Shown here: positions 114 to 18,470 of the stretch, piece after piece
Position numbering within the stretch: the first letter of the stretch is position 1
How the letters are laid out: every line of letters begins with the position of its first letter
NCBI GenBank assembly: GCA_043803815.1
Contig: JAZDJR010000013.1
Span: 1 to 18,470, forward strand
Source of the DNA: Candidatus Micrarchaeota archaeon
Lineage (GTDB): Archaea; Iainarchaeota; Iainarchaeia; Iainarchaeales; JAGVWC01
DNA length: 18,470 nucleotides
Direction: 5' to 3'
Made by a program: the position numbers and the translations under genes
The notes under the pieces: generated by a model
What the model was told of the DNA's origin: nothing
The model's input: the letters and a program-made list of their open reading frames with translations, nothing else
The model's database searches: none

Positions 114-142
114 AAAAACTTCAGAATCATGCAACACAGCAC

Positions 143-241: not shown

Positions 242-251
242 TTTCCCTTCA

Positions 252-515: not shown

Positions 516-516
516 T

Positions 517-786: not shown

Positions 787-947
787 AAGTAACTCTTTCC
801 AATGAAGAACATAAAAAACCTTCGTTTTTGGCTTTTAACCCACAATCAAGGTTTTTAAAGGATTCCCATCCAATAATCCTAATTAACCGTTTTTTGGCTT
901 TGCATCAAACAAACAGCCCAAACCGCGTTTTATGAAATAATTGATTC

Positions 948-952
948 GGTGA
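948..952 (+). promoter_or_regulatory. Archaeal Shine-Dalgarno site of rpl10e
   Basis: GGTGA 4 nt before ATG 957. The same GTGAAACCATG context precedes truD. A TTTTTAAA TATA-like box lies at 852-859. Confidence 0.7.
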
Positions 953-956
953 AACC

Positions 957-1706: not shown

Positions 1707-1780
1707 CCCCGCTTCCAACCCGAAAACTGATTTTTAATTTACAATTATTTTTTATTTTCTATAATAATTCGCGGATTATT

Positions 1781-2803: not shown

Positions 2804-2809
2804 AAAACA

Positions 2810-3625: not shown

Positions 3626-3712
3626 GGCAGAATAAGGATTTTTGGGTTTTAAAAGAATTATGGAGTCTTTTTGGTATAAGAGAACCCAAAACCGGTTTTT
3701 TGAGTTGAATTT

Positions 3713-4966
3713 ATGGCTAGTATCAAGCAGTCCTTTGAGGAAATCGACGAAAGCGAAGCAACGGTTTTCAAAAAACGCCTGGCGAAACTAAAAGAATACA
3801 GCGGACGCGGAACCGAATTAATCAGCCTGTATGTTCCAAAAGACGCGGATCGAAGCACGGTCATGGGGCAGCTCACCGAAGAAATGGGGCAAAGCTCCAA
3901 TATCAAAAGCGCCAACACGCGCAAAAACGTGCAAGGCGCCTTGCGAAAAATTCTGCAATTTTTAAAAAGCAACGATTTTAACATTCCCGAAAAAGGAATC
4001 GTCGTGTTTTCGGGAAACATTTCGGAAATGGAAGGCAAAACCGACATCCGGTTGTTCACCATTCACCCGATTCGGCCGCTGAAAACCAAATTGTACTGGT
4101 GCGACTCGGAATTCCATCTCGCGCCGCTGGAAGAAATGGTCCAGCCGACCGAAATTTACGCGCTGATTGTGCTGGACAAGCGCGAAGCGACCGTTGCCGT
4201 GCTCACGGGAAAAAAATTCGAAATCGTGGGGCATTTCACGAGCGCGGTTGCGGGAAAAACGCGCGCGGGAGGACAAAGTTCAGTTCGCTTTGAGCATTTG
4301 CGCGAAGAAGCCGCCAAGGATTTTTACCGCCGCGTATCCGAAAAAGTAAACCAATTGCTGACGGAATACGAAAACAAGCTCAAAGGTTTTATCATCGGCG
4401 GCCCCGGCATGACCAAGCACGAATTCCTAAAGCAAAGCACGTTGGATTACCGGCTCAAGGACAAAATCATTGGCATGCTGGACGTCTCCTATACCGATGA
4501 CAGCGGAATCCGCGAACTGATTCAGCGCTCCGAAGATTTGCTTTCCCAGTCCGCGATTACGCGCGAACGCCAAATCGTCAACCGGTTTTTGGAAGAAGCC
4601 GTTCGCGACGGACTGGCCGCCTACGGCCAAAAACAAGTCGAAGAAGCGCTTCTAAAAGGCCAGGTTTCCGACCTTTTGATATCCGAAGGAATCGAATGGA
4701 TGGTTTACAAGGTTTTGTGCGACAAAGACGGGTTTGCCAAGGAAATCATAGTCAAAGACCCCAAAAAAATGGACCCAAACGCCCTAAAATGCGAAAAATG
4801 CGGGTCTAAAACCGAAATTCTGGAAGAAGTCGACTACATGGACTGGCTCGTCGAAAAAGCCCATAATACCAGTTCCAAGACCAATGTCATCAGCCAGGAC
4901 ACCTCCGAAGGCCAGACCTTTTACCGCGGATTCGGGGGAATCGGGGCGATATTGCGGTATAAGTAA
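3713..4966 (+). CDS. prf1: Peptide chain release factor aRF1
   Basis: Motifs GRGTELISLY, SNIKS, YWCDSEF (YxCxxxF), AGGQS, IIGGPGMTK and FGGIGAILRY. Confidence 0.98.
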   Translation: MASIKQSFEEIDESEATVFKKRLAKLKEYSGRGTELISLYVPKDADRSTVMGQLTEEMGQSSNIKSANTRKNVQGALRKILQFLKSNDFNIPEKGIVVFSGNISEMEGKTDIRLFTIHPIRPLKTKLYWCDSEFHLAPLEEMVQPTEIYALIVLDKREATVAVLTGKKFEIVGHFTSAVAGKTRAGGQSSVRFEHLREEAAKDFYRRVSEKVNQLLTEYENKLKGFIIGGPGMTKHEFLKQSTLDYRLKDKIIGMLDVSYTDDSGIRELIQRSEDLLSQSAITRERQIVNRFLEEAVRDGLAAYGQKQVEEALLKGQVSDLLISEGIEWMVYKVLCDKDGFAKEIIVKDPKKMDPNALKCEKCGSKTEILEEVDYMDWLVEKAHNTSSKTNVISQDTSEGQTFYRGFGGIGAILRYK

Positions 4967-4981
4967 AAAAACGGAATAAAA

Positions 4982-5701
4982 ATGATAGAACTCGTTCCAT
5001 GGACCCATGTTGCCGAAACCCAAAAACATGAAGATGTCATAAAGTATGTTGAATCCCTTCCCAAAGGAACCATTATTTGCCTTGAAGTTTCCCAATCCCG
5101 CCTTGAAGAGCTCAACCGAATTATTTCAAGCCCGCAGCAACACGACTGGTCAAACAACGAGAAAAAAAGTACGCTTGCCCATATCGAACTCATTTACGTG
5201 TGCGAAAAAAACTGCTTGAAAATTGCGCCGCTTGGACAGCGCTCCGCATTGCGAAAATATCAAAAAATTGTACGCAACAAACAAGTTCGCGAACATTCAA
5301 ACGAAACCGACGAGTACGAATTTGCCATGGCCCAAAACGCAAAGAAAGTATCCGATTCAAGACCCGGTAAAAAAATTGTCATAATAACCGGCGCTTTACA
5401 CACAATTCCGCTTTTTATAAATCTGAGAAAACTGGGCGCACAGCCCAATATTGTTACGGCAATATTTCGCGATGCCACAAACCGCAGAAAAATGATTGCA
5501 TTAAATCATCGTTTTCGCCGTACACTGCTAACCAACAGCCCTGAAAAAAGACCGCAGTATATGCGAGAATACGCAAAATTCCCGCCTCAGTCCCTTCGAA
5601 AGATTGAAAAAGGCCAAGAGATTGGCGCATTAATAAAAAAACAAATAGAAGAAAGGGAAAAAAAACGGCAAGAGCGCAGGAATAAAAAAATACGAAAGTG
5701 A
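4982..5701 (+). CDS. Hypothetical protein, possible TraB/Tiki/ChaN (EreA-like) fold, with a highly basic C-terminus
   Basis: Ordered motifs IELVPWTH, IICLEV...R, EFAMA and KKIVIITGALH parallel the TraB-family LVGTxH, VxVEL...R, RExxMA and VVVVGAGH. The ORF fits tightly between prf1 and truD. Confidence 0.6.
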   Translation: MIELVPWTHVAETQKHEDVIKYVESLPKGTIICLEVSQSRLEELNRIISSPQQHDWSNNEKKSTLAHIELIYVCEKNCLKIAPLGQRSALRKYQKIVRNKQVREHSNETDEYEFAMAQNAKKVSDSRPGKKIVIITGALHTIPLFINLRKLGAQPNIVTAIFRDATNRRKMIALNHRFRRTLLTNSPEKRPQYMREYAKFPPQSLRKIEKGQEIGALIKKQIEEREKKRQERRNKKIRK

Positions 5702-5705
5702 AACC

Positions 5706-6971
5706 ATGCAAAACCCGTTTTCCACGAAATCAGAGGGCATCGGCGGCGACATCAAGCGCCGCTACGCGGATTTTATTGTCGAAGAAATCCAGACCGACCA
5801 CAGCAAAAGAGCAGTAACACGGTTCGTGCAGGAAAACGCGTCGGAAAGCGCAACGCCGATTGAAATACCCGAAAAACCCAAGGACTCCGCGTACCAGCAC
5901 CTGCATTTTGACTTGGAAAAAATAAACCTTGACACCAATTCCGCGGTCAGCCGCATCGCCAGGTTTTTTCATTTGAGCCGCAAACGAATCGGCTATGCGG
6001 GTCTCAAAGACAAGCGCGGGATTACCTGCCAAAGAATCTCCGCTTACGAACCCGACGTTGAAACGATTAAAAAATTCCAGTCCCGCGGAATCGACCTTAG
6101 AAATTTCGAATGGAAAAAAAACAAAATCGAAATCGGCGATTTAACCGGAAACGCGTTCACCTTAATCATCCGCCACATTGACTTCGACATAACTGAAACG
6201 GGTAAGCGCCTTGAAAAAAACCTGATGGAAATCGAACAAAACGGAGTGGCCAATTATTTCGGCGAACAGCGATTCGGCGGCATCCGCAACATTACCCACA
6301 AAGTCGGAAAAGAACTGGTTAGGGGAAATTTTGAAAATGCCGTCATGATGTACCTGACCGAACCAAGCGAAAAAGAGCCCGTTGAACTGACCAATGTGCG
6401 AAAAGAACTGAAAGAAAGCAAAAATTTTTTGGCGGCCGCAAGGACATTTTCCGAAAACAACCGCTTTGAAGCCGCGTTGTGCCAGCACCTGCATCAGCAC
6501 CCCAAGGATTTTGTGGGCGCGTTGGCGGTCCTTCCCAAAGCCATGCGCTACCTGTTCACGCACGCGTACCAATCGCATTTGTTCAACGAAATCATTGCAG
6601 AACGAATCAAGCAAGGATTCGGCATAACGCCGATTTCAGGAGATGTTTTGGAAAACGGAAGCCCGACCGCGCCTTTGTTCGGATATGAAACCAAATTTTC
6701 CGACGCTGACGCGGGAAAAATCGAAAAAACCGTGATGGCAAGCCAAGGAGTATCACTGACCCAGTTTCGGATTCCCCAAATGGCGGAATTGTCCTCCAAA
6801 GGCAGCAGAAAAAAAATCGTGTTGCACCCAAACAACATGAAAGTGCTGGAAATTACAGAAGACGAACTAAACGAAGGAAAAACAAAAGTCAAATTGTATT
6901 TTGAACTGGAAAAGGGAAGCTACGCCACCACAGTATTAAACGAAATCATCAAAAACACGGGTTCCGCGTAA
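5706..6971 (+). CDS. truD: tRNA pseudouridine(13) synthase TruD/Pus7
   Basis: Motifs GDIK...DFIVEEI, GYAGLKDKRGITCQ (catalytic Asp), GDLTGNAF, NYFGEQRFG, AYQSHLFN and FELEKGSYAT. Confidence 0.97.
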   Translation: MQNPFSTKSEGIGGDIKRRYADFIVEEIQTDHSKRAVTRFVQENASESATPIEIPEKPKDSAYQHLHFDLEKINLDTNSAVSRIARFFHLSRKRIGYAGLKDKRGITCQRISAYEPDVETIKKFQSRGIDLRNFEWKKNKIEIGDLTGNAFTLIIRHIDFDITETGKRLEKNLMEIEQNGVANYFGEQRFGGIRNITHKVGKELVRGNFENAVMMYLTEPSEKEPVELTNVRKELKESKNFLAAARTFSENNRFEAALCQHLHQHPKDFVGALAVLPKAMRYLFTHAYQSHLFNEIIAERIKQGFGITPISGDVLENGSPTAPLFGYETKFSDADAGKIEKTVMASQGVSLTQFRIPQMAELSSKGSRKKIVLHPNNMKVLEITEDELNEGKTKVKLYFELEKGSYATTVLNEIIKNTGSA

Positions 6972-6994
6972 TGTATTAAAAAGAAGGAAAAAAC

Positions 6995-7975
6995 ATGGAT
7001 TCCATAAAACCAAATTTATTGCTTCGGCTGGTTCCGCTTCTGCTTGGAATCGCATTGCTGTTTGTTTTGTTTGCCCAAACCGATTTTTCAATTTTTAACG
7101 AACTTTCAAACGCCAATGTTTTGGGGGTGCTTATTGCCATTGCCTTGGTTTTGGTGACGCTACTGTTTCGTGGAATCAAATGGAATTATATTTTGGGATT
7201 TTACGGGGTTAAGCAATCCAACTGGCGGGCCACGCAAGTATTTTGCATGGGAACCATGGTGGGATTTTGGACGCCGCTCAAACTCGGAATTTTTGTGCGT
7301 GCACTTTACGTCAAGCCTCTCGCGTTAACCAAAAGCACGGCATCCATTCTAATCGACCGCTTAACCGACATTTTGCTGGTCGTAATCATGGCCATTATTT
7401 TGTTTTCGTTCTTTTTGGTAGCGGCCACTTTTGAACACGCCGCACCGCCCTTGGAAGGAGTTTTTTTGGTCTTAATTATTATCGCGGTTGGAATTTTGGC
7501 TTTTTTGCTGCAGTCCAAAACCGTCATCGGTTTTTTGGAAAAAGTTTTTTCCCGGTTAATCCCCTTTTCAAAGCTTCGCGTAGCCGTTACCCAAACCTTT
7601 GACGAAATCGGCGCATATTTAAGCAGCCCCAAACGAGCCGCACTTGTTTTGGGGTTGGGCGCTTTGGGGTTTGTCAGCACTATCGGATACTATTTTTTTA
7701 CGGCGTTTGCCCTGCACGTTTCGATTCCGTTCACCTGGCTTTCAGCCATGGTGGCACTTACAATCCTGATTGAAACCATCCCTGTCACCGCTTTGGGATT
7801 TGGAACCCGCGAAGGGGCATGGCTGCTGGCAAGCCCAATATTGCAAATCACGCCAAGCCAGGCCGTTGCCTTGCCCCTACTCGCAACACTCATCAATTAC
7901 GCCACGCTAAGCGTCATCGGATTGAGCTTGTCGTTTGAAAAAAAAGACACGAAGACAGCGGCACTTGAAAAGTAA
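6995..7975 (+). CDS. Lysylphosphatidylglycerol-synthase TM / flippase-like (UPF0104-type) membrane protein
   Basis: About 8 hydrophobic segments. Motifs RGIKW, TPLKLG..VRA, SILIDRL.D and IPVTALGFGTREG match this family's pattern. Confidence 0.8.
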   Translation: MDSIKPNLLLRLVPLLLGIALLFVLFAQTDFSIFNELSNANVLGVLIAIALVLVTLLFRGIKWNYILGFYGVKQSNWRATQVFCMGTMVGFWTPLKLGIFVRALYVKPLALTKSTASILIDRLTDILLVVIMAIILFSFFLVAATFEHAAPPLEGVFLVLIIIAVGILAFLLQSKTVIGFLEKVFSRLIPFSKLRVAVTQTFDEIGAYLSSPKRAALVLGLGALGFVSTIGYYFFTAFALHVSIPFTWLSAMVALTILIETIPVTALGFGTREGAWLLASPILQITPSQAVALPLLATLINYATLSVIGLSLSFEKKDTKTAALEK

Positions 7976-8070
7976 AATTAAAACGATTAATTTTGCTATT
8001 TTTTGAATTAAAAAAGAAATTAAAAATCCGGTTAATCAAATCGTTTTTGAATCAAAAAGGCGCTTATTTT
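7976..8070. terminator. AT-rich gap between convergent genes with oligo-T tracts on both strands
   Basis: T and A runs between the two stop codons, e.g. TTTTTTGAATTAAAAAA. Confidence 0.4.
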
Positions 8071-10212
8071 TTATTTTTGGGGAACCGCAAAAACAGAATA
8101 TTTGGCCGATGAATACACTTTGTCCAAAAACGAAAACCGCTTGTCCGAATCAAATTCGGCGATGTTCGTGACGCTGGTCGAGGAACGGTTTGTATACACC
8201 AAAACCGAAGAGACATTATAGTCGCTAAGCACATTCGGATCGGCATTAAGCAAAAAATCGTACACGGCTTTTAACTGTTCTTCTTTTGAAAACTCGACAT
8301 ATAAATCAGCCACTACTTTTCGCTGCGAAAAAAAAGCCGTCGCATGGCCCAAAACAGGCTCGGTTAATACCGCGTCACCGGGGTTTGAAACGCTTTTTAA
8401 AAAAATAAACGGCGACAAGTCCTGATTGGAAAAAACCGTGGCGGGTTCGCGCGGCAATTGCAAAAACAACGCGCTTGCCAGCACCAGTACCAGCACGACT
8501 TGAGCCGCGGAAAAAAACCGCTTGGAAAAAAGCGGGCGAAGCGAAGCTGAAAAAAGGGATTCCAGCACAAAAACCCCCAACACAATTCCGATCAGCACGT
8601 TGACCCGAAACGAAATCAGCCAATGCAATGCTAAAAGCGCAATCAGCCCAAGCCACAAAATGCGCAGGCGAAACGGCATTTTGAAAAACGCGATTAAGCC
8701 GCCAATCACGCAAAAGACCAAAACCGCAAAAACCGGCGGAGTCAGTTCGCCGGCCAAAAAATAAACCGAGCCCTGAACGGCGTATCCCCACTGGTCGGAA
8801 AGTGACTGGTTTGGAATTCCGCCGTTCCACACCAAGGGAACAAACAATCCGGCAAAAAAAATCCCGCCGAGCGCAAAACTGGCGGCCATTGATTTCCGGT
8901 TCTTTTTCCATCCGGTAAACGCGACCGCAAACAAAGCGGTTAATCCGGCGGCCGCCAAAAACAGCGGAATTTGAATAAAGGCAAGCACGGCCAAAAGCAC
9001 GGCTGCTTTAATCACTGAAAAGCGTTCGGATAGCAATTCTGAAACGCAAAAAAACATCAGGCCGAGCGCCAACACGTGGCGGGGAGAAACAAACGTCATG
9101 TTAAAAGAAAAAAATACAAGCCATGCAAAACCGAGCAAACAGGCCTGTTGAAAAAAGCCAAAACCAAGGCGACGGCCCAATTTTAATATTCCAAAGCCAA
9201 AAAACAAAATGGCGACGAGGCTGGCCCAGGCAAACGCGGCAAAAAAATTGGTTCCATTTATACTTGCCAATGCGGATTCCAGCACAAAAAAACCAGGGGC
9301 AAAAGTTTGAGGCCTTCCCAAAAAACTATAGTTGTCCCAAGTTACCAATCCTTGGTGTTCAAACACGGCTTGGCTTTGGCGCTCATAAAAAACATTCCAT
9401 TCCCACCAATGCGACGGCAAAACGAATTGAACCAAGACCACCAAAACCAACACGCCAATCAAAAGTGCGATGGCGTAATAGTCGCTGCGGCTCCAATGAA
9501 ACGGCCGGGCATTTTTAATCCAGTGCCGCCACGCAATCAAAAAACCGAGCCAAACCATCCATTGGGTAAGCGCGTTCCATGGAATTCCCAGCCAAAAAAA
9601 AACAATCGGAATGACGATTAGGGCGGCCAAAAAGCCCAGGGCAAAACCCGCAAATCCTTCCCAAGGCCCTTTTTTGTATAGGCTATAAAACAAAGCCCCA
9701 AACCAGGACAGGGCAAACAATGCAAACAAAATCGGCTGTTCCAATGCGGGTTTTCCAAACGGTTCGGCCGGCACGGCGGACACTTTCCAGGCCGCAAGTT
9801 TTGTTTCTGTGCCCGCGTGAAAAAAAACAGTTTGTCCGCCGGCTTGCATTTTTATTGCATTGGATTTTTTTTCTAAAAGTGCTGCCGCAAGGCAATGCTC
9901 GATTTTGCCATTGGAAAAAAAGGCGGTCGCGATTTTGGTTTCATTGACCAAAATATCCGCGTTTAACGGGGTTTGGGCATTGGACGAATTCCAGGTCGCG
10001 CCAAAACAAACCGGGCTTTGCGGGGTTGCTTGATTATAATAGTCCATTTGCAATTCGGAAAAGTCCGTGGTTTGGGCGGCGGAGTGCCAAAAAAAACCGG
10101 AAACCACAAAGCCAAAAGCAAGTATTGCAAAGAAGCCAGCCAAAAGAAGTCGGGGAGTCAGCCATTGGCAGGGTGTTTTTTTTTCTGCGGCGGTTTTTGG
10201 GGTGCGAGCCAT
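8071..10212 (-). CDS. Polytopic membrane protein, probable GT-C superfamily (AglB/STT3-like architecture, lacking WWDYG)
   Basis: Many TM helices. External-loop motif FYERQ..AVFEH.GLVTWDNYSFLGRPQTFAPG and C-terminal soluble domain FLK.....DAVLTEPVLGH....FSQRKVVAD..YNVSSVLV echo the STT3/AglB layout. Confidence 0.65.
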   Translation of the reverse strand: MARTPKTAAEKKTPCQWLTPRLLLAGFFAILAFGFVVSGFFWHSAAQTTDFSELQMDYYNQATPQSPVCFGATWNSSNAQTPLNADILVNETKIATAFFSNGKIEHCLAAALLEKKSNAIKMQAGGQTVFFHAGTETKLAAWKVSAVPAEPFGKPALEQPILFALFALSWFGALFYSLYKKGPWEGFAGFALGFLAALIVIPIVFFWLGIPWNALTQWMVWLGFLIAWRHWIKNARPFHWSRSDYYAIALLIGVLVLVVLVQFVLPSHWWEWNVFYERQSQAVFEHQGLVTWDNYSFLGRPQTFAPGFFVLESALASINGTNFFAAFAWASLVAILFFGFGILKLGRRLGFGFFQQACLLGFAWLVFFSFNMTFVSPRHVLALGLMFFCVSELLSERFSVIKAAVLLAVLAFIQIPLFLAAAGLTALFAVAFTGWKKNRKSMAASFALGGIFFAGLFVPLVWNGGIPNQSLSDQWGYAVQGSVYFLAGELTPPVFAVLVFCVIGGLIAFFKMPFRLRILWLGLIALLALHWLISFRVNVLIGIVLGVFVLESLFSASLRPLFSKRFFSAAQVVLVLVLASALFLQLPREPATVFSNQDLSPFIFLKSVSNPGDAVLTEPVLGHATAFFSQRKVVADLYVEFSKEEQLKAVYDFLLNADPNVLSDYNVSSVLVYTNRSSTSVTNIAEFDSDKRFSFLDKVYSSAKYSVFAVPQK

Positions 10213-10248
10213 AACTAAAACAAAATCAATCCAAAAAGGTAAAAAGAA

Positions 10249-11595
10249 CTATGCGTCGATTTTGTTGCGGTTTTTGGAGAGCAAAAACCAGTCCATGGGC
10301 TGTCCGGCCAAGGCTTTAAAGATGCCAAGGGAAACATAAAATACGACGATTAAGCCGACGGAAAACGATGCCGCCAAAAACCGAATCGCGTCTTTAAAAC
10401 CGTGGTTGGCCAAAAACGCGATGAGAATGGCAAACAAAAAACCCGTGGTTAACAGCATGTTAATCGCGGTTGACTTAAGCAAAAATGCCACGTTTTCATA
10501 CGTTGGATAGGTCGGATTTGAAAACGATGAAAGGGTTCCCAAAACCATTAGCCCCAGCAGCAATACGGTGAAAAGGTAACCGGACGCGTTAATCAATATC
10601 GCCCACTTTTTTTTGCTGTCGGTTTTGGAAGAAACGGCAATGGAAACGGCATGCAATTGCAGCGCGTTAATGCAGCCGTAGGCCCATCGCATTTGCTGGC
10701 GGCTTAAATCCTTTAATCGAAACGGAACTTCGCATTCGCACGTTAAATCGCTTAAATACAAAATCCGCTTGTTTTCCCCGAATAAGCGGTATGAAAATTC
10801 GACGTCTTCCGTCAGGCTGCCCATTTTCCAGCCGCCCAACGCGTCCAGGTCTTTTTTTCGAATCGCTTCGGCGGAACCGCACAGGGTAATTGTTCCCATG
10901 TTTTGGCTTAAAAACGGCAATACCAATTGGTGATACAGGTACAAAATGGATGCTCCTGCAACGGAAACAATGTTTTGATTCGCGTTGGTGGGAACCCATC
11001 GCGCCTGAACCGCGGAAAGCGTGCGGTCTTGCTGAAATGGCGCGATGATTCGCTTTAAAAAATCGGGAGCCGGCGCAAAATCCGAGTCAAACACGACAAT
11101 TATTTCTCCGGACGAATTGGCCAGCATGTTGTTCAGATTGCCGGCTTTAAATCCCGCGTTGGTTTCGCGTTTTAAAACCCGGACTTGTTTGGAAAATTTT
11201 TTTTCAAACTCTTTGAGTTTTTTGGACACGGCGGGATTGCTGCTGTCGTCCCCGATTAAAATTTCAAACCGGTTTTTGGGATAATCAAACGCCATGCAGC
11301 TTTTGGCGCATAAAAGCACGGCCAGTTCGTTTCGCGTAGGAAGATGAATGCTAATCATCGGCGCTTTTTTTTCGTCAAACGCCGCTTGTTTTTTGGGGGG
11401 GCTTGAAAAAAAACTGGCAATGGCCATGATCAAATAAAAAGCCGATACCAGGACCGCCAGCGGAAACAGCACGGTAAAGGCAAGGGCGGATATGGCATGA
11501 ATCGGGTTTAACACGGGCGAAAAAACAAGCAATTTGGAAGTTAACGGCCACAGTCCCTGCAAAAACTGCGTAAAAACAAATGCGATATCAAACAT
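10249..11595 (-). CDS. Cellulose-synthase-like processive family 2 glycosyltransferase
   Basis: Motifs DDS, KAGNLN, FDSDF (DxD), VQARW, GGW...LTED and QQMRW (QxxRW); TM helices at both ends. Confidence 0.9.
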   Translation of the reverse strand: MFDIAFVFTQFLQGLWPLTSKLLVFSPVLNPIHAISALAFTVLFPLAVLVSAFYLIMAIASFFSSPPKKQAAFDEKKAPMISIHLPTRNELAVLLCAKSCMAFDYPKNRFEILIGDDSSNPAVSKKLKEFEKKFSKQVRVLKRETNAGFKAGNLNNMLANSSGEIIVVFDSDFAPAPDFLKRIIAPFQQDRTLSAVQARWVPTNANQNIVSVAGASILYLYHQLVLPFLSQNMGTITLCGSAEAIRKKDLDALGGWKMGSLTEDVEFSYRLFGENKRILYLSDLTCECEVPFRLKDLSRQQMRWAYGCINALQLHAVSIAVSSKTDSKKKWAILINASGYLFTVLLLGLMVLGTLSSFSNPTYPTYENVAFLLKSTAINMLLTTGFLFAILIAFLANHGFKDAIRFLAASFSVGLIVVFYVSLGIFKALAGQPMDWFLLSKNRNKIDA

Positions 11596-11645
11596 CGGAT
11601 TCTCTTCCCAAAGAACTTAAAACATGCAAAATATGTAAAAAAAAG

Positions 11646-11653
11646 TATTTAAA
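11646..11653 (-). promoter_or_regulatory. TATA box for the GT2 / GT-C gene pair
   Basis: TTTAAATA on the minus strand, about 50 nt upstream of ATG 11595. A small hairpin AGCCGTT-gga-AACGGCT at 11665-11681 separates it from the upstream gene. Confidence 0.5.
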
Positions 11654-11680
11654 CACACCATTATAGCCGTTGGAAACGGC

Positions 11681-12301
11681 TTAATTTTGAATTTGCCCCG
11701 CTACGGCATTAATGTTGTCCAATTGGGATTGGGCGTTTTCAAACATTTTGACCAGGGTTGAAAAGGACGCAATGGCAATGTCTTGCGGGTTTTTCGGCGA
11801 AACCGTTACTTGATTAGAGGAAACGACTACTTGGGTTTTGGGTAGGGCGCCGTTCGGCAATAATACCTTGATTTTTTTTCCTTCAAACTCTTTTTCAAAC
11901 AATTCGCATTGCGAAACCGTCAATTCGTCATCGGTTAATACGTCGCCGCGGTTGGTCCGGCAGGTTAACAGCGCGTTTGAACCGGATTTGACCAAAGTCA
12001 GCGTCGTGACTTCTTTGTGGTTGGCAATCAAAATCACCGAAAACAAATTGAGGCTGTTGGACATATACTGGTTCAAAGGGCCCTGAACCTGGGTTTCAAC
12101 CGCAACCAAAAAATCGCTTCCTTGGCCAAACTGCTTTAAGCCGTCGCTAACGGGCTGTTCGTTGGAAACAAAAGACACGCTTTTTTCGTTCAGTTCAAAC
12201 GCGTACGGCTTGAAAAAACTCAAAAGCCCCAAAACGGCAAAGCCCAAAATCAACACGATTACTAAAACCAAAACCGGTTTCCATTGGTCGATTGTTTTCA
12301 T
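11681..12301 (-). CDS. Hypothetical membrane-anchored extracytoplasmic protein (206 aa)
   Basis: One N-terminal hydrophobic helix followed by a soluble alpha/beta-like domain with two Cys. ATG at 12301; TATA-like TTTAAAA at 12358-12364. Confidence 0.75.
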   Translation of the reverse strand: MKTIDQWKPVLVLVIVLILGFAVLGLLSFFKPYAFELNEKSVSFVSNEQPVSDGLKQFGQGSDFLVAVETQVQGPLNQYMSNSLNLFSVILIANHKEVTTLTLVKSGSNALLTCRTNRGDVLTDDELTVSQCELFEKEFEGKKIKVLLPNGALPKTQVVVSSNQVTVSPKNPQDIAIASFSTLVKMFENAQSQLDNINAVAGQIQN

Positions 12302-12427
12302 CAAAAGATTTTCCCTGCAAAAAAACTATAAACCAATCCAAATGAATGGGAAAACGCTTTAAAATTGGCCAAGGCAAATCCGACCAAAAAAAAACAATTC
12401 ATTAAAAAGTCATTAAAAATTCCGGCA

Positions 12428-12546
12428 AAATCCAATCCGTTTAAATTCAATCAGTCCAAATCCGATTCGTCCAAATCCAATCGGTTCCAATTCAACCAAT
12501 TCCAATTCAACCCCTTCCACTTCAATCGTTTAAATCCAATCGTTCG
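12428..12546. repeat. Degenerate 15-bp tandem repeat, about 8 units
   Basis: Units: AAATCCAATCCGTTT / AAATTCAATCAGTCC / AAATCCGATTCGTCC / AAATCCAATCGGTTC / CAATTCAACCAATTC / CAATTCAACCCCTTC / CACTTCAATCGTTT / AAATCCAATCGTTCG. Confidence 0.8.
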
Positions 12547-12600
12547 ATTCCAAACAAACCCGTTGCGGATTTTTTGCCGGACGATTCTTACGACCTGTTC

Positions 12601-12643
12601 AAAATAAAAAAAAAGAAAAAGAAAAAAAATCCCCTTTCGGGGA
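12601..12643 (-). terminator. S-layer gene terminator: GNRA hairpin plus long U-tract
   Basis: Minus strand reads TCCCC-GAAA-GGGGA (12630-12643) followed by about 29 nt that are almost all T, starting 14 nt after the stop. Confidence 0.85.
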
Positions 12644-12657
12644 CCTTTTTTTTAGAC

Positions 12658-15435
12658 TTATTGCAACAAACCGGTCAAGGCGGTGATGAGTTCTTTGGCC
12701 GCGTTCATGGTGTCCGTAGCTGTATATCCGGCAACAACGATGTTACCGCTTTCCAGTTTTTGGGCTACCGTTTGACCCGAGGTTTGGAGTTTGTCTTCCA
12801 AAGTCAAGGTTCCGTCGACTTCCAAATTCTTTGCCAGGTTGTTGGCAAGGTATCCGCCGACAATGATGTAGTTTCCTGACGGGGGTGACTGGTCCGTGTA
12901 TACCAGCTGGCCAACAGGCATGATGGCTTCGTAGGATGCCGGAACACATGCTCCGCTTCCTGCGCTGCAGGTGCCGTTGATGCCGGTAATGGTTACCGAG
13001 GTTCCACCGGTCGTAGTGAACGTGTCGCCGTCACTCAAATCATTCGAGTCTTCTCCACCCGAAGTTGAGGTCGTGACTTCGTTGCTTTTGACAAGGAAGT
13101 AGGACTTCATTTGTCTGTCCGGCAACGTCATGGTGACATCGCGGTTAGCCAGTTCGATTTTGGAACCGTTGACAGTGTAGGCTTTTTTGTAGTTTCCGCT
13201 GGACTGTCCCGGGTCTCCGTTGTATTCGCTGAAGTTGACCAAGTTCTGGTCGCTTTCGATGTACATGACAGCCGTGTTGAGCGTGGTTAGGCTCGCGGGT
13301 GCACCTGTCAAGGTTCCGGCCCAGTTTTGTTTTCCGCCGTTTCCAATGGCTTGCGTGTCGATTGTTCCTTGGCTGCCGTTTTCGGTATCCCATAGGATAA
13401 AGGCTTGCGCGTTGGCGGCATTGGGGCCTCCGGTTGGAATGGTGGTGCTGGTGGTTCCGAGTCTTTCTGCGACTTTGAAAACCGCGGTTCGGTAGATGTT
13501 GGTTGTGCTACCAGGCTGATTTCCGTTAAAGTCGTAGATATCCGGCCAGTAATAGGGCCTGTGGGTACGGTTGCTGTCGGCAGGACCCGTGTTGGCATCG
13601 CTGATTTCGATGTATCCTTGCTGGGCTTGGTTAAGCAAGATGTTGACATCGTTGACCGCGGTTCCGAGTAGGAACAAGTCGCCGGCGCTGTACTGCAACG
13701 AATCAATGTATCCGCTGTAGTTGGTTGTGTCGCCGCTATTTTGGCTTCCGCCGACTAATAGGAGCCAAAGTTGACTGGATAGGGTTGTGCTTTTTCGGGC
13801 CAAATACTTGTATTGGGTTCCGTTCTTTCCTTTGAGTACGACAATGGCCGAGCTATCCCAGTTGACATCGTTTGCAAGGACGCTGACGTTATAGTCCGTT
13901 GTTATCATGGGAATGCTTGCGCTGTCGTTTTCAACTGCGAACTTGTTAATGTCGCTTTCCGAGCTGGTCCAATAGGCTTGCGTGCTGGTTCCGTCAAAGT
14001 TCAGGACTGTTCCTGTTGATGACGTTGCCTGCAATTTGATGGCCATTGGAATCCAGTGTTCGGTTCCGCTGACATCAAAGTAGTGGATGGTTCCATAGGT
14101 GTCGCCCGTGGTTCCTGCTGCCGCGCCTTTCAAGAACTCCACTTTGGTTTTTTGGACGCCGGCATCGTAAAATCCTTTGAATTCAAAGGTTCCGAGCTGG
14201 TCTAATCCGGTTCCGTGGAAGAACTCGAATTGGGTTGGATGGGTACCCGGGTAAAGAGCTTGTGCTGACCATAACGGTGAACTAGTGGTAAAGTTATAGT
14301 TGCTGCTGTTTTTGATTGTGATTCCCGTTACTGTGCCTGCGCTGGTTGTAAACGATGCGACCCATGGAATGTTGCTTCCGTTGCTGTTCGGGTCGTAGGG
14401 CACTTCGCGTCCGCTTTGAATTTCAACGCGCGAGGTTCCGACAACAGTTTTGAACGTGTATATGGTCGAATTGTTTTGGGTCGTCGAACCGACTGCGGTT
14501 AATCGGATGCGGGTTGCCAAAATTTCTACGCCGTTGTTGCGGAAGATGATATCGGTGCCGCCGCTGAATTGGTCGCTTTTGACGACAACGCCTTGGTCGT
14601 CAAGCAATGATACACCGGCTACGTTAACTCCGCTGACCAGCGAACCGCCGTCAAATCGGATGGTGTAGGTTTTGCCGTCTCGGCCAAGTGCCGTAAAGGT
14701 ATCGCCGGATGTGTAGATATGGTCTGCGCCGTCTTCTACCAATACGACGTCTGAACCGCTTGAGTTAATGGAGTCTACGACGTAGCTTTTTCCCAAAAAG
14801 TGGATGGGAATATAGTCGTCGCTTCCCGTGTCCGTGAACGGATAGGGAACTCCGGGCGAAAGTGATACGTTGTAGTTCATATCGCTGGAGTTGATGGTAG
14901 CCACGAGGTCTTTGATGTTGCTGGTCGTATCCATTTTTCCGTCGGCTTTGATGCCAAGGGTTTCAATGACAGTCATGCTTGTTGCGGCGTTTCCATCAAT
15001 GATTCGGTTAACGGTTCCGTTGAAGAACTGGGGAAAATAGGTGCTTCCAATGGATTCGTAGTATTCGACTCCGCTGGTTACACTATTAAGGTTTGCGTTG
15101 TTATATTCGCGTACGCCTCCGCTAAAGGTTTGGGTTCCGCCGACATTTACGTTGACAGTTAAGTCGGTTGGGGTTCCTGCGCTTCCTTCAGTTCCCTGAG
15201 TAACGCTGGTCGTTTTAGTCGACAGTTGCGCTACTTTGGCGGCGATGTTGCCCGCCCAAACTACGTCGCTTACCGCGGCATTTGAACCGACAACGACGCT
15301 GACAACCGGTGTTCCGGTCGCTGAGACAATGTCGCTTTTGGTTAAATCCGTGAAAGCTGCTGTTGCAAACGCTGCACCGACCAATACGGTCCCTGCGGCA
15401 ATTGCAGCCAGCTTTTTGATGTTCAGTTTTCTCAT
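12658..15435 (-). CDS. S-layer protein (925 aa), with Methanococcales/Thermococcales/DPANN-type N- and C-terminal domains
   Basis: Signal KKLAAIAAGTVLVG; N-domain VVVGSNAAVSDVVWAGNIAA; C-domain IIVGGYLAN...IVVAGYTATDTMNAAKELI. Thr/Ser/Gly/Asn-rich. Start set at ATG 15435 behind the SD GAGGTGA. Confidence 0.92.
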   Translation of the reverse strand: MRKLNIKKLAAIAAGTVLVGAAFATAAFTDLTKSDIVSATGTPVVSVVVGSNAAVSDVVWAGNIAAKVAQLSTKTTSVTQGTEGSAGTPTDLTVNVNVGGTQTFSGGVREYNNANLNSVTSGVEYYESIGSTYFPQFFNGTVNRIIDGNAATSMTVIETLGIKADGKMDTTSNIKDLVATINSSDMNYNVSLSPGVPYPFTDTGSDDYIPIHFLGKSYVVDSINSSGSDVVLVEDGADHIYTSGDTFTALGRDGKTYTIRFDGGSLVSGVNVAGVSLLDDQGVVVKSDQFSGGTDIIFRNNGVEILATRIRLTAVGSTTQNNSTIYTFKTVVGTSRVEIQSGREVPYDPNSNGSNIPWVASFTTSAGTVTGITIKNSSNYNFTTSSPLWSAQALYPGTHPTQFEFFHGTGLDQLGTFEFKGFYDAGVQKTKVEFLKGAAAGTTGDTYGTIHYFDVSGTEHWIPMAIKLQATSSTGTVLNFDGTSTQAYWTSSESDINKFAVENDSASIPMITTDYNVSVLANDVNWDSSAIVVLKGKNGTQYKYLARKSTTLSSQLWLLLVGGSQNSGDTTNYSGYIDSLQYSAGDLFLLGTAVNDVNILLNQAQQGYIEISDANTGPADSNRTHRPYYWPDIYDFNGNQPGSTTNIYRTAVFKVAERLGTTSTTIPTGGPNAANAQAFILWDTENGSQGTIDTQAIGNGGKQNWAGTLTGAPASLTTLNTAVMYIESDQNLVNFSEYNGDPGQSSGNYKKAYTVNGSKIELANRDVTMTLPDRQMKSYFLVKSNEVTTSTSGGEDSNDLSDGDTFTTTGGTSVTITGINGTCSAGSGACVPASYEAIMPVGQLVYTDQSPPSGNYIIVGGYLANNLAKNLEVDGTLTLEDKLQTSGQTVAQKLESGNIVVAGYTATDTMNAAKELITALTGLLQ

Positions 15436-15443
15436 GTTTTTAT

Positions 15444-15450
15444 TCACCTC
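15444..15450 (-). promoter_or_regulatory. Strong Shine-Dalgarno site of the S-layer gene
   Basis: GAGGTGA 8 nt upstream of ATG 15435. Confidence 0.85.
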
Positions 15451-15475
15451 ACATGATTCTGGTTAAGATCACAAA

Positions 15476-15528
15476 CAAGTCGTTCTTTGGGTTACCGGCT
15501 TTCGCTGGTTCAACCTAAGAAAGACTTG
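15476..15528 (-). promoter_or_regulatory. Long stem-loop at the predicted 5' end of the S-layer mRNA
   Basis: Minus strand CAAGTC-TTTCTTAGGTT-GA-ACCAGC-GAAA-GCCGGT-AACCCAAAGAAC-GACTTG, an imperfect stem of about 22 bp capped by GAAA. Confidence 0.7.
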
Positions 15529-15549
15529 CAAGTAACGTGCCCGCCATGG

Positions 15550-15579
15550 TTTAAATTGGTTTCGTTTTAGGCCTAAAAC
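15550..15579 (-). promoter_or_regulatory. S-layer promoter (BRE-TATA) with an abutting 16-bp palindrome
   Basis: Minus strand CGAAACCAA-TTTAAA (TATA at 15550-15555). Perfect palindrome GTTTTAGGCCTAAAAC at 15564-15579. Confidence 0.65.
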
Positions 15580-15715
15580 CCCCTTTTGAAAGGGGTTTTG
15601 TAAGGCGATTTTTTCGTTTTTTTCCTAAAGCCTTATCGGCAATCCCCGAAAGGTGGTACAAACACCTTTTTTTCGTCAAAAGCAGTAAAAACAGGTTAAA
15701 ATAGGCTTAATCTCT

Positions 15716-16351
15716 TTATTTGTATAATTGGCGGTTTAACCTTTCGATTTCGGTCCGGTTCATGAGTTTAACCAGCTGGTTGGAATACGCGTGAATCATT
15801 TGCGCCATGTCCAATAAGCCTTCCTGCAAATCGTGGCCGTCAAATTGGATTGTGCTGGGTTTTAGGACTTCGATGGAAGAAGGGCCGTAGTAATACATGA
15901 ATTTGACCAGGGTTTTGAAGTCTTTGATGCCGATAGTCAAATCCAAAAAAGTGGAATACCAGTCGTCGTCTTTGAGCGTGGTTGCTTTGGAAATATTGTA
16001 AACCGTAAACTCGGGGTCGTTTTGGATGGCTTCGCCGAGTTTATCCAGTTGTTTTTTGAGCAATTCCGGTTCAATGGCTTTTAGTTCGATGGTGGCGCGA
16101 ACCCGCAGGCCGAATTTGTCTTTTTCCGCGATTTCTTTTCTGCGCGACAGTTCTTCAGCGATTTCTTTTTTCAAGGAATAGCGCGTCGGAAAGCCGTCTT
16201 TTTTTTCCACCAAATCGAGTTTGACGAGTTCTTTCAGTTCGTTGGCTATTTTGCCGGACGAACAACCGGAAACCTTGGCGAGTTCATCCGCGGTTTTAGG
16301 CGCGTTTATCAGGTGCAAGGCCAGTTTTTTTTGTTCTTCTGAAAAAGACAT
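15716..16351 (-). CDS. Winged-HTH (ArsR/TrmB-like) domain fused to an uncharacterised archaeal domain
   Basis: The N-terminal PKTADELAKVSG.S..KI..ELKELVKLDLVEK....TRY is a wHTH pattern. The C-terminal alpha/beta domain carries YGPSSIEVLKP. Confidence 0.75.
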   Translation of the reverse strand: MSFSEEQKKLALHLINAPKTADELAKVSGCSSGKIANELKELVKLDLVEKKDGFPTRYSLKKEIAEELSRRKEIAEKDKFGLRVRATIELKAIEPELLKKQLDKLGEAIQNDPEFTVYNISKATTLKDDDWYSTFLDLTIGIKDFKTLVKFMYYYGPSSIEVLKPSTIQFDGHDLQEGLLDMAQMIHAYSNQLVKLMNRTEIERLNRQLYK

Positions 16352-16405
16352 ACTAAAACAGGTTAACCAAGTTATTTTAATCCCTTATTCAGCTCAATTC
16401 GTAGT

Positions 16406-16726
16406 ATGGTGCTGGATACTATTCCCAATCAGCTGGGCCAGACAACCGCCGATTCCGCGGTTCAGGCGGGCCGGCAGGCGTTAGCGTTTGTCGGCGACCC
16501 CGCGATATTGATTTTTGGCATTGTTTTGGTCATTGCCGCGGTTTTGATATTGTATTTTTTAAAACAATTCCTCGTTAACTCGATTCTTGGAGTCGTTGCA
16601 TGGGTAATTCTTAATTTTGTGTTTAATATTCACCTGCCGTTTTGGCTTAGCCTGATTGTCGGCGTTATTTTCGGGCTTGCGGGCATCGGCGTACTTTTGG
16701 TGCTGCGTTTTTTGGGAATCCTGTAA
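16406..16726 (+). CDS. Small membrane protein resembling the BofA (pro-sigmaK processing inhibitor) family
   Basis: Three hydrophobic segments. NSILG....ILN.....LP......GVIFGLAGIGVLLVL matches the BofA pattern N...G.....N...IP......G..G.PG. Confidence 0.65.
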   Translation: MVLDTIPNQLGQTTADSAVQAGRQALAFVGDPAILIFGIVLVIAAVLILYFLKQFLVNSILGVVAWVILNFVFNIHLPFWLSLIVGVIFGLAGIGVLLVLRFLGIL

Positions 16727-16774
16727 AACCAGCATATAGTATAAATTATAAGCGGTATTTTCCCTATTTTTCTT

Positions 16775-18052
16775 ATGCAGCCATTCGATTGCGACTTGCA
16801 TTTGCACGGCAAATTCGCGGGCGGAGTTTCCAAGGAATGCACGATTCCGGTTTTGGCGGAACAATCCCGCAAAAAGGGCCTGCAATTGCTGGTTACCGCC
16901 GATATTTCGCACCGTGACTGGCTAAGCCACGTCAAAAGCGAATTGGTCGAGGAATCCAACGGGATTTTTTCAGACAAGGAAAAAAAATGCCAATTTATTG
17001 TCGGAACCGAAGTTGAAGACAACCTGCGTATTCATCATCTGGTTTACCTGCCCGACCTGACGCGGGCAGCGGAATTCCGCGAAAAAGTCAAGCCGTTCGG
17101 GACTTTGGATTGTTCCATGTGCGGACGCCCAAAGCTTCGCCTGACCGCGGAACAAATCGCGCAAATCGTGCATGATATTGGCGGAATCATCGGACCCGGC
17201 CACGCGTTTACGCCTTATTCCGGAATTTTTGCGCACCATGATTCGTGGAAAGCGGCATATGGAAGCCAAGCGGAAAAAATATTATTTTTAGAATTAGGGC
17301 TTTCGGCGGATACCGCTTGGGCCGACCAAATGAAGCAAAACCACGAACTCGCATTTTTATCCAGTTCTGATGCACACTCTCCGTGGCCCCATAGACTGGG
17401 GCGCGAATGGAACCGGATTTTGCTTAAACAGCCGTCGTTTTCAGAATTAAAAAATGCGCTTTCCGAACGGACAGAACCGGCAATCATCATGAACGCGGGG
17501 CTGGACCCTTGCGAAGGAAAATACCATGCCACCGGTTGCAACGGCTGTTTCAAGCAATTTGAAATCGGCTTTGCTGAAAAACTCAAGTGGAAATGCCCGT
17601 TTTGCAAAGGCGAAATCAAGCGCGGAGTAAAAGACCGCATCATCCAATTAACCGATACGCCGGTTGGAAAGCATCCGGTTCACCGCGGAAAATATTTTCA
17701 TTCATTGCCGTTAGCCGAAATTTTGCAGCAAGTGTATCAAGTCGAAAATCCGCTTTCCAAAAAAGTGCAGAGCGCATGGGAAGACTTGGTGGAGCGCTTT
17801 GGCAATGAAATCCGGGTGCTGACGGATGTTTCCGAAAGCGAGTTGACGGAATTCAATCCGCAAATCGCAAAATACGTTTTGGCGTTTCGCAACGGCTGGG
17901 TGCACTACGAACCCGGCGGAGGAGGGCAATACGGAAAACCAACCGTGTGCCTTTCGCAGGAAGAATTCGAACGAGAAAAAAACCAGTTAAAAAAATCAAG
18001 CACCACGCAAAACAAGTTCCGCGGGCAAAAAACAATTGGGGAATACCGCTAA
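16775..18052 (+). CDS. endoQ: Endonuclease Q (PHP-family, TIGR00375-like) with Zn finger and C-terminal PIP box
   Basis: Motifs DLHLHGKF, EVED..RIHHL, GRP, GHAFTP, ELGLSAD, SDAHSP.PHRLGRE, GKYH.TGCNGC...CPFC, GVKDRI and PGGGGQYG; terminal QKTIGEY. Confidence 0.9.
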   Translation: MQPFDCDLHLHGKFAGGVSKECTIPVLAEQSRKKGLQLLVTADISHRDWLSHVKSELVEESNGIFSDKEKKCQFIVGTEVEDNLRIHHLVYLPDLTRAAEFREKVKPFGTLDCSMCGRPKLRLTAEQIAQIVHDIGGIIGPGHAFTPYSGIFAHHDSWKAAYGSQAEKILFLELGLSADTAWADQMKQNHELAFLSSSDAHSPWPHRLGREWNRILLKQPSFSELKNALSERTEPAIIMNAGLDPCEGKYHATGCNGCFKQFEIGFAEKLKWKCPFCKGEIKRGVKDRIIQLTDTPVGKHPVHRGKYFHSLPLAEILQQVYQVENPLSKKVQSAWEDLVERFGNEIRVLTDVSESELTEFNPQIAKYVLAFRNGWVHYEPGGGGQYGKPTVCLSQEEFEREKNQLKKSSTTQNKFRGQKTIGEYR

Positions 18053-18330
18053 CTTTCCTGTGCTTGACGCTTGGCCGCCAGACCATCCATGAGGTCATCT
18101 ATCTTTTCAATTTCGTGCAGCATGGTTATGAGCTGCACCTGCCTTCTCACTGCGCCGGGAAATCCGGCGTTCAAAGCGCTTCTAACCGCGGAAATCCATT
18201 CAATGCTCATGCGATGCTGTGCTTGTTGCATTTCTTCCAAGTATTGGATTTCCCGTCTTAAGCCTTGGAAATCAACCCATTTGGAGTCCAGCGCCTGCTT
18301 AAGAACTGCAATATGCCTGTCACTCGTAGC
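18049..18330 (-). pseudogene. 3' remnant of a hypothetical gene interrupted by an IS
   Basis: The frame stays open and protein-like (ATSDRHIAVLKQALDSKWVDFQGLRREIQYLEEMQQ...QAQES*) up to the IS boundary. There is no start codon in its first 30 codons. Confidence 0.6.
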
Positions 18331-18470
18331 GGCTCCGTTGAAAGTCTCATTTTGTGCCTCCGATGTTGAGGTTGTCGGCTATCATGCGTAGCAGGACTTC
18401 TTTTCGTTGTTGGCGGGTTTGGCGGGAGTAGAGGAACCCGCCGAACAAGCGTTTGAGTCGGCTGATGGCC
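18331..18470 (-). mobile_element. Downstream end of an IS5-family (IS903-like) insertion sequence, truncated by the window edge
   Basis: The terminus GGCTCCGTTGAAAGTCTC resembles the IS903 inverted repeat GGCTTTGTTGAATAAATC and lies directly after the transposase stop. Confidence 0.8.
18347..18469 (-). CDS. IS5-family DDE transposase, C-terminal 40 aa (partial)
   Basis: Manual translation AISRLKRLFGGFLYSRQTRQQRKEVLLRMIADNLNIGGTK* fits the IS5 C-terminal pattern (E)..FS.LKR.FG..L.SR....Q..E......NL. Not in the supplied ORF track. Confidence 0.85.
   Translation of the reverse strand, partial: AISRLKRLFGGFLYSRQTRQQRKEVLLRMIADNLNIGGTK

Follow-up and report, generated by a model that had tools for sequence, protein, structure and literature searches.

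Why does an archaeal surface-layer (S-layer) protein carry three times as many Asp-x-Asn (D-x-N) tripeptides as its composition predicts? The question is raised by an 18,470-nucleotide stretch of DNA from a Candidatus Micrarchaeota archaeon (contig JAZDJR010000013.1 of assembly GCA_043803815.1, positions 1 to 18,470; this whole stretch is the window referred to below). An initial annotation had counted the excess by hand in the S-layer gene and suggested selection for a modification signal, or for Ca2+-binding or Asx-turn loops. The excess arises because the protein family keeps some twenty such triplets at fixed loop positions, where they may act as structural motifs. The gene in question reads as follows.

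12658..15435, minus strand: S-layer protein gene, open reading frame (ORF) with translation; 925 amino acids (aa) plus stop (stop codon 12658-12660)

The start ATG lies at 15435, eight bases downstream of a Shine-Dalgarno-like GAGGTGA, and a plus-strand reading of 12658-15435 was rejected: it holds many stops, and the single ORF is on the minus strand. By its matches to S_layer_C (Pfam PF05124; E 1.8e-10, 41.2 bits against a cut-off of 23.9) and S_layer_MJ (NCBIfam TIGR01564; E 1.9e-13, 49.9 bits against a cut-off of 25), the protein is a member of the archaeal S-layer family TIGR01564/PF05124, of Methanococcales-DPANN type. Relatives are labelled Micrarchaeota, Iainarchaeum, Diapherotrites or just 'archaeon', and the remaining genes in the window are archaeal housekeeping genes (eRF1, TruD, diphthamide synthase and L10e by Pfam); scans of the window for tRNA and Rfam RNA genes found none. 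The window thus encodes the S-layer protein of a DPANN archaeon, whose genome spans 1.08 Mb in 36 contigs at 85.6% completeness. A two-dimensional lattice has been reported for a cultivated Micrarchaeon (10.1101/2021.04.28.441871).

Excess of D-x-N in the S-layer protein

With 56 Asp and 66 Asn, the 925-residue protein is expected to hold 3.99 D-x-N tripeptides; it holds 12 (DGN, DMN, DPN, DIN, DYN, DVN twice, DAN, DSN twice, DFN and DQN). Among the control pairs, the mirror pattern N-x-D occurs 4 times, D-x-D once and N-x-N 7 times. Computation therefore reproduced the roughly threefold enrichment and every hand count of the initial annotation, including its observations that few of the sites (2 of 12, of the form D-x-N-x-[ST]) carry Ser or Thr at +2 and that the number of canonical sequons is near expectation (N-[^P]-[ST], 18 versus 14.0 expected; not enriched). 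The Poisson value for 12 occurrences is 8.9e-4. Shuffling the protein, as the annotation had proposed, gave significant results whichever type of shuffle was used. At least 12 D-x-N appeared in 1 of 5000 whole-protein shuffles (P = 2e-4; P = 1e-4 in 20,000 shuffles), P was 5e-5 to 4e-4 for shuffles within blocks of 20, 30, 50 or 100 aa, and shuffling within the DSSP classes (strand, helix, coil) of the structural model described below gave P 2.5e-4. Because the block and DSSP-class shuffles stay significant, local composition and loop richness are rejected as the cause. At the nucleotide level, the corresponding pattern GAYNNNAAY occurs 12, 0 and 5 times across the three frames of the gene; it is frame-specific, which rules out a DNA-level motif and places the signal at the protein level. 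Seven of the 12 sites do lie within residues 495-637 (window 13525-13953), the cluster of about 143 aa that the annotation had pointed out, and its position stands; statistically, the grouping of seven within 140 aa carries little weight (scan P = 0.024). The adjacent dipeptide D-N is absent from the protein where about 4 are expected, and N-D occurs 4 times, a minor observation with a Poisson chance of about 0.02.

One rival explanation is that, of the many tripeptide patterns that could have been singled out, this one stands out in the protein through chance or composition. When all 400 possible a-x-b pairs are considered, some pair reaches an equally small Poisson P in 5.2% of 1500 shuffles, and other spacings were also open; the S-layer protein taken alone is therefore borderline. 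Some 4 of the 12 sites are in any case expected by chance, and one of them, at residue 796, is unique to this protein. Local composition, by contrast, is excluded by the block and DSSP-class shuffles, and what decides against chance is the behaviour of the family.

Recurrence at fixed positions in the family

Two alignments were used. The first (A1) comprises 11 sequences including the S-layer protein of the window, the relatives being 39-83% identical to it. The second (A2) comprises 97 full-length relatives, selected by length from the best 150 of the 633 relatives that an exhaustive profile search returned at E <= 0.001, plus earlier matches. Across A2, D-x-N occurs 952 times versus 441.6 expected (2.16x), against 364 for N-x-D (0.82x) and 0.87x for D-x-D; the ratio exceeds 1.5 in 80 of the 97 sequences and falls below 1 in 8. 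Among residue pairs at i,i+2 with more than 100 expected occurrences, D-x-N ranks first, followed by K-x-Y at 1.77x. The same excess was found in 56 S-layer ORFs retrieved independently from species-representative genomes (524 versus 241.1, 2.17x; ratio above 1.5 in 45 of the 56), with N-x-D at 0.79x and E-x-N at 0.83x in the same retrieval. The other 395 ORFs at these S-layer loci, some of which are S-layer fragments, reached 1.35x. Replication in the homologues and in other genomes, the first rank among well-populated pairs and the conservation of sites in position make a chance origin extremely improbable; unless the alignments are grossly wrong, these sequence data have already refuted it.

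The surplus is also confined in position. Recurrent columns, those with the motif in over 10 A2 sequences, account for 514 of the 952 D-x-N occurrences but for 38 of the 364 N-x-D occurrences, whereas columns with at most 3 occurrences contribute 270 D-x-N and 230 N-x-D, near the control level. Since the surplus is concentrated in recurrent columns, about twenty positions carry it and there is no diffuse rise in density. Foremost among them are columns 523 (68/97), 495 (58/97), 185 (41/97) and 514 (41/97). On these alignments, the 12 sites of the S-layer protein would comprise about eight inherited positions and about four that arose by chance. In A1, D185, N187, Y188, D348, D523, N525 and D596 are invariant; D-x-N is kept in 8-9 of the 11 sequences at 147, 514, 635 and 729, and in 5-8 at 495, 613 and 620. 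The Asn residues of the motif are better conserved than the other 54 Asn of the protein (identity 0.675 versus 0.43 over 10 homologues; Mann-Whitney P = 0.0025), while the corresponding difference for Asp (0.76 versus 0.63) is not significant (P 0.11). The surroundings of the 952 A2 sites are distinctive as well: the middle residue is enriched in Phe (2.6x) and Met (2.1x), then Gln, Ile, Val and Leu; the residue after Asn in Tyr (2.4x) and Phe (2.1x), then Trp, Arg, Val and Ile; the neighbourhood of the motif is poor in Lys, Glu and Asp. At weaker sites Asn gives way to Ser, Thr, Gly or Asp, and Asp to Glu (A1, A2), which by sequence are the substitutions of turn and cap positions. The part of the initial annotation that proposed selection is thus borne out for the triplet itself, by the conservation of Asn, the invariant D185/N187, D523/N525 and D596, and the recurrent columns; its suggestion of a modification signal, taken up below, fared less well.

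Placement of the sites in the predicted structure

An AlphaFold2 model computed from A2 (mean predicted local distance difference test score, pLDDT, 85.8; predicted template-modelling score 0.73) was used to place the sites. The N-terminus reads from the sequence as signal-like, basic and then hydrophobic, and it is followed by the first half of an anchoring domain whose second half closes the protein.

15361..15435, minus strand: putative signal peptide, about residues 1-25 (MRKLNIKKLAAIAAGTVLVGAAFAT...); hydrophobic N-terminus, pLDDT <50
15196..15351, minus strand: N-terminal half of the anchoring domain, about residues 29-80; matches 9fsa_A, no D-x-N
12661..12933, minus strand: C-terminal half of the anchoring domain, about residues 835-925; matches 9fsa_A, no D-x-N

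VIA-align superposes the model, over the range 29-921, on 9fsa_A, the domain that anchors the Methanococcus voltae S-layer protein to the cell wall, with Z 15.9 and a root-mean-square deviation (rmsd) of 2.5 for 120 of 135 residues at 32% identity, and both halves also match 9fsa in a hidden Markov model (HMM) search; in the model, the N- and C-termini fold together into one membrane-proximal anchoring domain. The central part (about residues 90-830) resembles a DUF1608/MSTP-like beta-sandwich (Foldseek E 5.5e-7 to the DUF1608 of MA0829), with residues 105-786 superposing loosely on DUF1608 (VIA-align Z 9.1, rmsd 8.4). A preprint (10.1101/2024.05.28.596244) places Micrarchaeota S-layer proteins in an 'MSTP-like' beta-sandwich class. 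The architecture of two-part anchoring domain and beta-rich middle is shared with the Methanococcales-type S-layer proteins (TIGR01564; S_layer_N/S_layer_C; 9fsa from M. voltae), as the putative signal peptide would be, but the present protein is longer (925 aa, whereas the title of 9fsa numbers the M. voltae protein to 576) and its central part matches that type at the level of fold only. With Methanosarcina acetivorans MA0829 DUF1608 (PDB 3u2g/3u2h), the central part has the beta-sandwich fold in common, at about 14% sequence identity and with the loose superposition given above.

The model places no D-x-N in the anchoring domain; all 12 sites fall in the predicted outer beta-sandwich part, 10 of them in its loops or short turns. 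They are, in order along the protein:

14989..14997, minus strand: D147-G-N149; coil in a hairpin loop; D-x-N in 9/11 A1 sequences
14875..14883, minus strand: D185-M-N187(-Y188); entry of strand 186-197; D, N and Y invariant in 11; D-x-N 41/97
14386..14394, minus strand: D348-P-N350; coil; the sole site fitting D-x-[DN]-x-[DN]-G
13945..13953, minus strand: D495-I-N497; coil directly before strand 498-502; D-x-N 58/97
13888..13896, minus strand: D514-Y-N516; coil; D-x-N 41/97
13861..13869, minus strand: D523-V-N525; coil; best-conserved site; invariant in 11; D-x-N 68/97 (D 81, N 76)
13642..13650, minus strand: D596-V-N598; 3-10 turn before strand 599-600; D invariant and N nearly so in 11
13591..13599, minus strand: D613-A-N615; low-confidence loop (pLDDT 52-58 for blocks 601-620)
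13570..13578, minus strand: D620-S-N622; short turn; retained in 6/11
13525..13533, minus strand: D635-F-N637(-G); short helical turn; D-x-N 8/11; A2 column of N: G 23, N 21
13243..13251, minus strand: D729-Q-N731; hairpin turn into strand 731-735; D-x-N 8/11
13042..13050, minus strand: D796-S-N798; inside strand 795-800; D-x-N 1/11 and 1/97

DSSP of the model assigns six of the 12 to coil, three to helical turns of three residues, two to strand entries and one to a strand interior; of the 29 recurrent A2 columns, 23 have their Asn outside strands. The one intrastrand site, D796-S-N798, is found in this protein alone and is probably a chance site. Sites also differ in what is kept: at D348-P-N350 the Asp is invariant while the Asn becomes Ser or Ala in 5 of the 11 (T 31, S 24, N 16 and D 11 in the A2 column), and the A2 column at D596 is split between Glu (50 of 97) and Asp (26).

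D-x-N as a proposed structural loop motif

An excess with this direction and residue specificity, at conserved positions located in loops, fits a loop or turn role of Asx type, or a cation role other than that of an EF-hand. We put at about even the chance that the sites are explained as position-specific structural loop motifs, with a possible role in capping or contacts; some probability is kept for roles outside the explanations discussed here. On this explanation, the outer part of the protein would inherit some twenty fixed positions with the sequence Asp, hydrophobic, Asn, aromatic or hydrophobic. The two hydrophobic neighbours would pin the segment to the domain core, so that the Asp carboxylate and the Asn carboxamide, two residues apart and on the same side, could cap backbone NH groups in the manner of an Asx-turn and fix the shape of the loop at the edges of the sandwich. 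The deeply conserved sites 495, 514 and 523, in neighbouring loops, might additionally line a cation or subunit contact.

Several points weigh against a loop-motif role. Asx-type turns accept Asn at the first position and Asp at the third, and a generic turn preference fails as an explanation because N-x-D, D-x-D and N-x-N should then rise too; they do not (0.82x and 0.87x family-wide for the first two, and 7 N-x-N in the S-layer protein itself). A more specific role in capping strand N-termini was rejected. In the S-layer protein, 5 of the 12 Asn are at most one residue away from where a strand begins, versus a background of 20-26%, but over the recurrent A2 columns an Asn from -1 to +2 of a strand start is found in 8 of 29, versus 72 of 244 (Fisher P = 0.66). 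The homologues, moreover, are kin, and hence the family counts are not independent events. Finally, the genome encodes six further surface proteins, described below, with a four- to sevenfold excess, a pattern that resembles a rule of the organism more than a property of one fold.

Calcium and other cations

Asp and Asn in loops bring calcium to mind, and familiar calcium motifs were considered first. EF-hand-like DxDxDG loops, which also occur in dockerins, FG-GAP repeats and SdrD B domains, share with the present sites an Asp at position 1 and tolerance of Asn at position 3. They differ in that positions 5 and 6 (D/N/S, then G) are not enriched here, D-x-D is not enriched and the flanks are hydrophobic. 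D-x-[DN]-x-[DN]-G is matched by one of the 12 sites (D348-P-N-S-N-G), whose continuation is not conserved, and over the 952 A2 sites Asp stands at 0.7x at +4, while +5 is enriched in Val, Phe, Ile and Asn, with Gly not among the enriched residues. We therefore reject the EF-hand-like loop, and with it the ordinary Dx[DN]xDG calcium loops that the initial annotation had set against its own proposal. The cadherin-type calcium motif, DxNDN, was likewise rejected; its nearest counterpart is D796-S-N-D-L, again unique to this protein.

There remains the proposal that the conserved loops supply ligands to Ca2+ or Mg2+ sites of another kind, which would stiffen the sandwich domains or bridge subunits, much as in the calcium-dependent S-layers of Caulobacter, Geobacillus and Bacillus. 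Many S-layers are stated to require Ca2+ to assemble (review PMC12175726). The best-conserved sites, 495, 514 and 523, occupy three successive loops of one domain together with conserved F-D-G and N-G; Asp is the commonest substitute at the two best-conserved Asn columns (5 of 97 at 525, 10 of 97 at 497); and in A2, Asp and Asn are gained and lost together at columns 185, 495 and 514. In known calcium loops D-x-D is no rarer than D-x-N, whereas here D-x-D shows no enrichment (0.87x) and E-x-N falls below expectation (0.83x). The poor fit to D-x-[DN]-x-[DN]-G, the lack of Asp, Asn or Gly enrichment at +4 and +5 and the depletion of acidic residues around the motif in A2 point the same way, and HMM, Foldseek and VIA-align searches found no solved metal-bearing homologue of the central part. 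Taken together, these points leave cation binding an unlikely explanation.

Other surface proteins rich in D-x-N

The genome of the window was surveyed through 914 ORFs of at least 100 aa, called crudely by a longest-ORF rule with Met starts and not from curated annotation. Seven of them reached a Poisson P <1e-3 for D-x-N, the S-layer protein being the weakest of the seven. Together these seven, all predicted surface proteins, hold 211 D-x-N versus 41.2 expected (5.1x), whereas the other 907 ORFs hold 695 versus 660.3 (1.05x; N-x-D 0.96x). The six besides the S-layer protein (loci L031-L035; contig coordinates in the genome, G000) are:

C16:10133-13594, plus strand: D-x-N 57 vs 8.1; signal peptide and C-terminal anchor; Ig-like leads only
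C24:23954-28249, minus strand: D-x-N 61 vs 11.3; polysaccharide deacetylase, Big_7 and PKD domains
C5:9742-13017, plus strand: D-x-N 29 vs 6.1; YadA-head repeats
C36:17906-21334, minus strand: D-x-N 25 vs 6.1; LVIVD repeats and VWA domain
C36:16938-17906, minus strand: D-x-N 13 vs 2.1; no family match
C17:9245-11998, minus strand: D-x-N 14 vs 3.5; CarboxypepD_reg domain

They show a four- to sevenfold excess and differ in Pfam domain content; E-x-N occurs twice across the six, versus about 13 expected. In the protein at C16:10133-13594, 57 of the 79 Asp (72%) are followed by x-N; its relatives contain 21-55 D-x-N versus 3.3-11.4 expected, and the invariant columns of this family are mostly the Asp and Asn of D-x-N motifs. 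For the protein richest in D-x-N, a single repeat modelled with AlphaFold2 from an 11-row alignment reached a mean pLDDT of 44.9, and this model was not used; a profile of that protein's family matched no solved structure.

A bias common to all secreted proteins was rejected. Taken together, ORFs whose N-terminus is hydrophobic reach only 1.5x, with many large ones near 1x, and no excess is seen in two giant CarboxypepD_reg proteins and an FG-GAP-repeat subtilase (12 vs 9.9, 9 vs 10.1 and 8 vs 8.5). It follows from such large secreted proteins that D-x-N richness is general neither to secretion nor to one fold. Of all the evidence, the pattern across the six proteins argues most strongly that more than ordinary loop capping is at work, and it makes the more interesting lead.

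A possible modification signal

Could D-x-N be a lineage-specific signal for modification of Asn on surface proteins, independent of N-x-S/T, such as an unusual N-glycosylation? The motif is strict in direction and residue (Asp and not Glu, Asn and not Asp), it is most extreme in the other surface proteins, and the excess is limited to the seven predicted surface proteins. Downstream, the S-layer gene is followed by genes for a GT2 glycosyltransferase and a GT-C-like membrane protein. In a cultivated Micrarchaeon, the S-layer protein gives a positive glycoprotein stain (10.1101/2021.04.28.441871), although such a stain does not tell which residues bear the sugar.

The known sequons do not account for the sites. 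The canonical N-x-S/T sequon was rejected at the D-x-N asparagines, with Ser or Thr at +2 in 2 of the 12. The extended sequon of bacterial PglB, D/E-x-N-x-S/T, resembles the motif in its acidic residue at -2 from Asn; it differs in that here Glu is not accepted (E-x-N 0.83x in the 56 S-layer ORFs), Ser or Thr at +2 is not required (2 of 12 sites) and the host is an archaeon with an STT3-like AglB, and it was rejected as well. In oligosaccharyltransferases, the WWD motif holds the +2 Ser or Thr of the sequon. The single STT3/AglB of the genome (G000:C35:9612-11786; L036:1435-3609) reads NWWDEGHW and can be aligned with human STT3A across WWDYGY and the residues after it; an AglB with a lost or altered WWD, which might read a sequon lacking Ser or Thr, was not found, the only STT3 match in the genome being this one. 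With WWD kept in the sole AglB found, the enzyme is expected to need N-x-S/T.

As a separate observation, this AglB has WWDEG in place of the usual WWDYG and is nearer to eukaryotic STT3A (E 1.2e-12) than to the solved archaeal AglB chains.

Because D-x-N is uncoupled from Ser or Thr at +2 (in A2, Thr is at 1.4x and Ser is not enriched) and AglB keeps WWD, a glycosylation sequon is unlikely. The surplus, moreover, sits at conserved columns, with sporadic sites at the control level (270 vs 230), unlike the turnover of sequons; Asn is frequently exchanged for Ser, Thr, Gly or Asp while Asp persists (A1, A2); the large secreted proteins named above show no excess; and the GT-C-like gene does not follow the D-x-N richness of S-layer proteins across genomes. 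Among the papers listed by the literature searches, none was found to describe a stand-alone D-x-N signal; those listed on D-x-N and glycosylation concern oligosaccharyltransferase mechanism or PglB. The missing coupling to +2 Ser/Thr, the intact WWD and the sporadic sites at the level of N-x-D leave the modification-signal half of the initial annotation unsupported, and we regard such a signal as quite improbable.

A broader idea would embrace all seven proteins: Asp-hydrophobic-Asn-aromatic as a surface-protein code of this DPANN lineage, marking an undiscovered Asn modification that ignores N-x-S/T, or a new cation clamp other than the EF-hand. The code would span S-layer, Ig-like, fibre-like, beta-propeller/VWA and pilin-like surface proteins; we think it speculative and rather unlikely. 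DPANN archaea live attached to host cells, with their surface proteins as the point of contact, and a conserved, direction-specific signature of two residues, present in the S-layer protein and much more strongly in several other surface proteins of this genome, suggests that this surface has some common structural or chemical requirement not described so far. In the handful of Micrarchaeota in culture, the conserved sites offer concrete targets for glycoproteomics, mutagenesis and metal analysis. Should they prove to be loop caps only, they make a useful family signature and nothing more.

Genes neighbouring the S-layer gene

The S-layer gene is flanked, on the same strand, by four further genes of interest, whose occurrence was counted by tblastn over 108 related loci found with the 11-row alignment.

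15716..16351, minus strand: TrmB-like winged-helix gene, 211 aa, directly upstream of the S-layer gene; Pfam TrmB E 3.2e-6
11681..12304, minus strand: 207-aa protein with one N-terminal membrane helix, directly downstream; no Pfam/NCBIfam match; 25/108 loci
10249..11595, minus strand: GT2 glycosyltransferase, downstream; Pfam Glyco_tranf_2_3 E 5e-22; 16/108 loci
8071..10212, minus strand: 713-aa polytopic membrane protein, GT-C-like (lead only); no Pfam/NCBIfam match

The TrmB-like gene is matched in 96 of the 108 loci (best matches 50-56% identical); where its position was inspected, it lies immediately upstream of the S-layer gene and shares its strand. The product of this TrmB-like gene is more conserved than the S-layer protein. 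It could serve the S-layer gene as a dedicated regulator or partner. The 713-aa protein contains an HWWEWN stretch after a membrane helix, and its ESM Atlas model resembles DUF6541, RgtA-like proteins and STT3 with TM scores of 0.55-0.65, a lead only. It has a match in 5 of the 108 loci, with flanks too short to judge, and a homologue in 16 of 41 related genomes, some of them incomplete. The gene is present in two genomes (G029 and G039) whose S-layer proteins are poor in D-x-N (2 vs 3.0 and 2 vs 4.4), and was not found in G001, G002, G003 and G017, all of which have D-x-N-rich S-layer proteins. Because its presence does not follow D-x-N richness, this neighbouring gene was rejected as the cause of the excess. 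At five of the related loci (L060, L065, L081, L090 and L105), the S-layer gene is followed by short ORFs of 200-231 aa that contain 4 D-x-N each, versus 0.8-0.9 expected.

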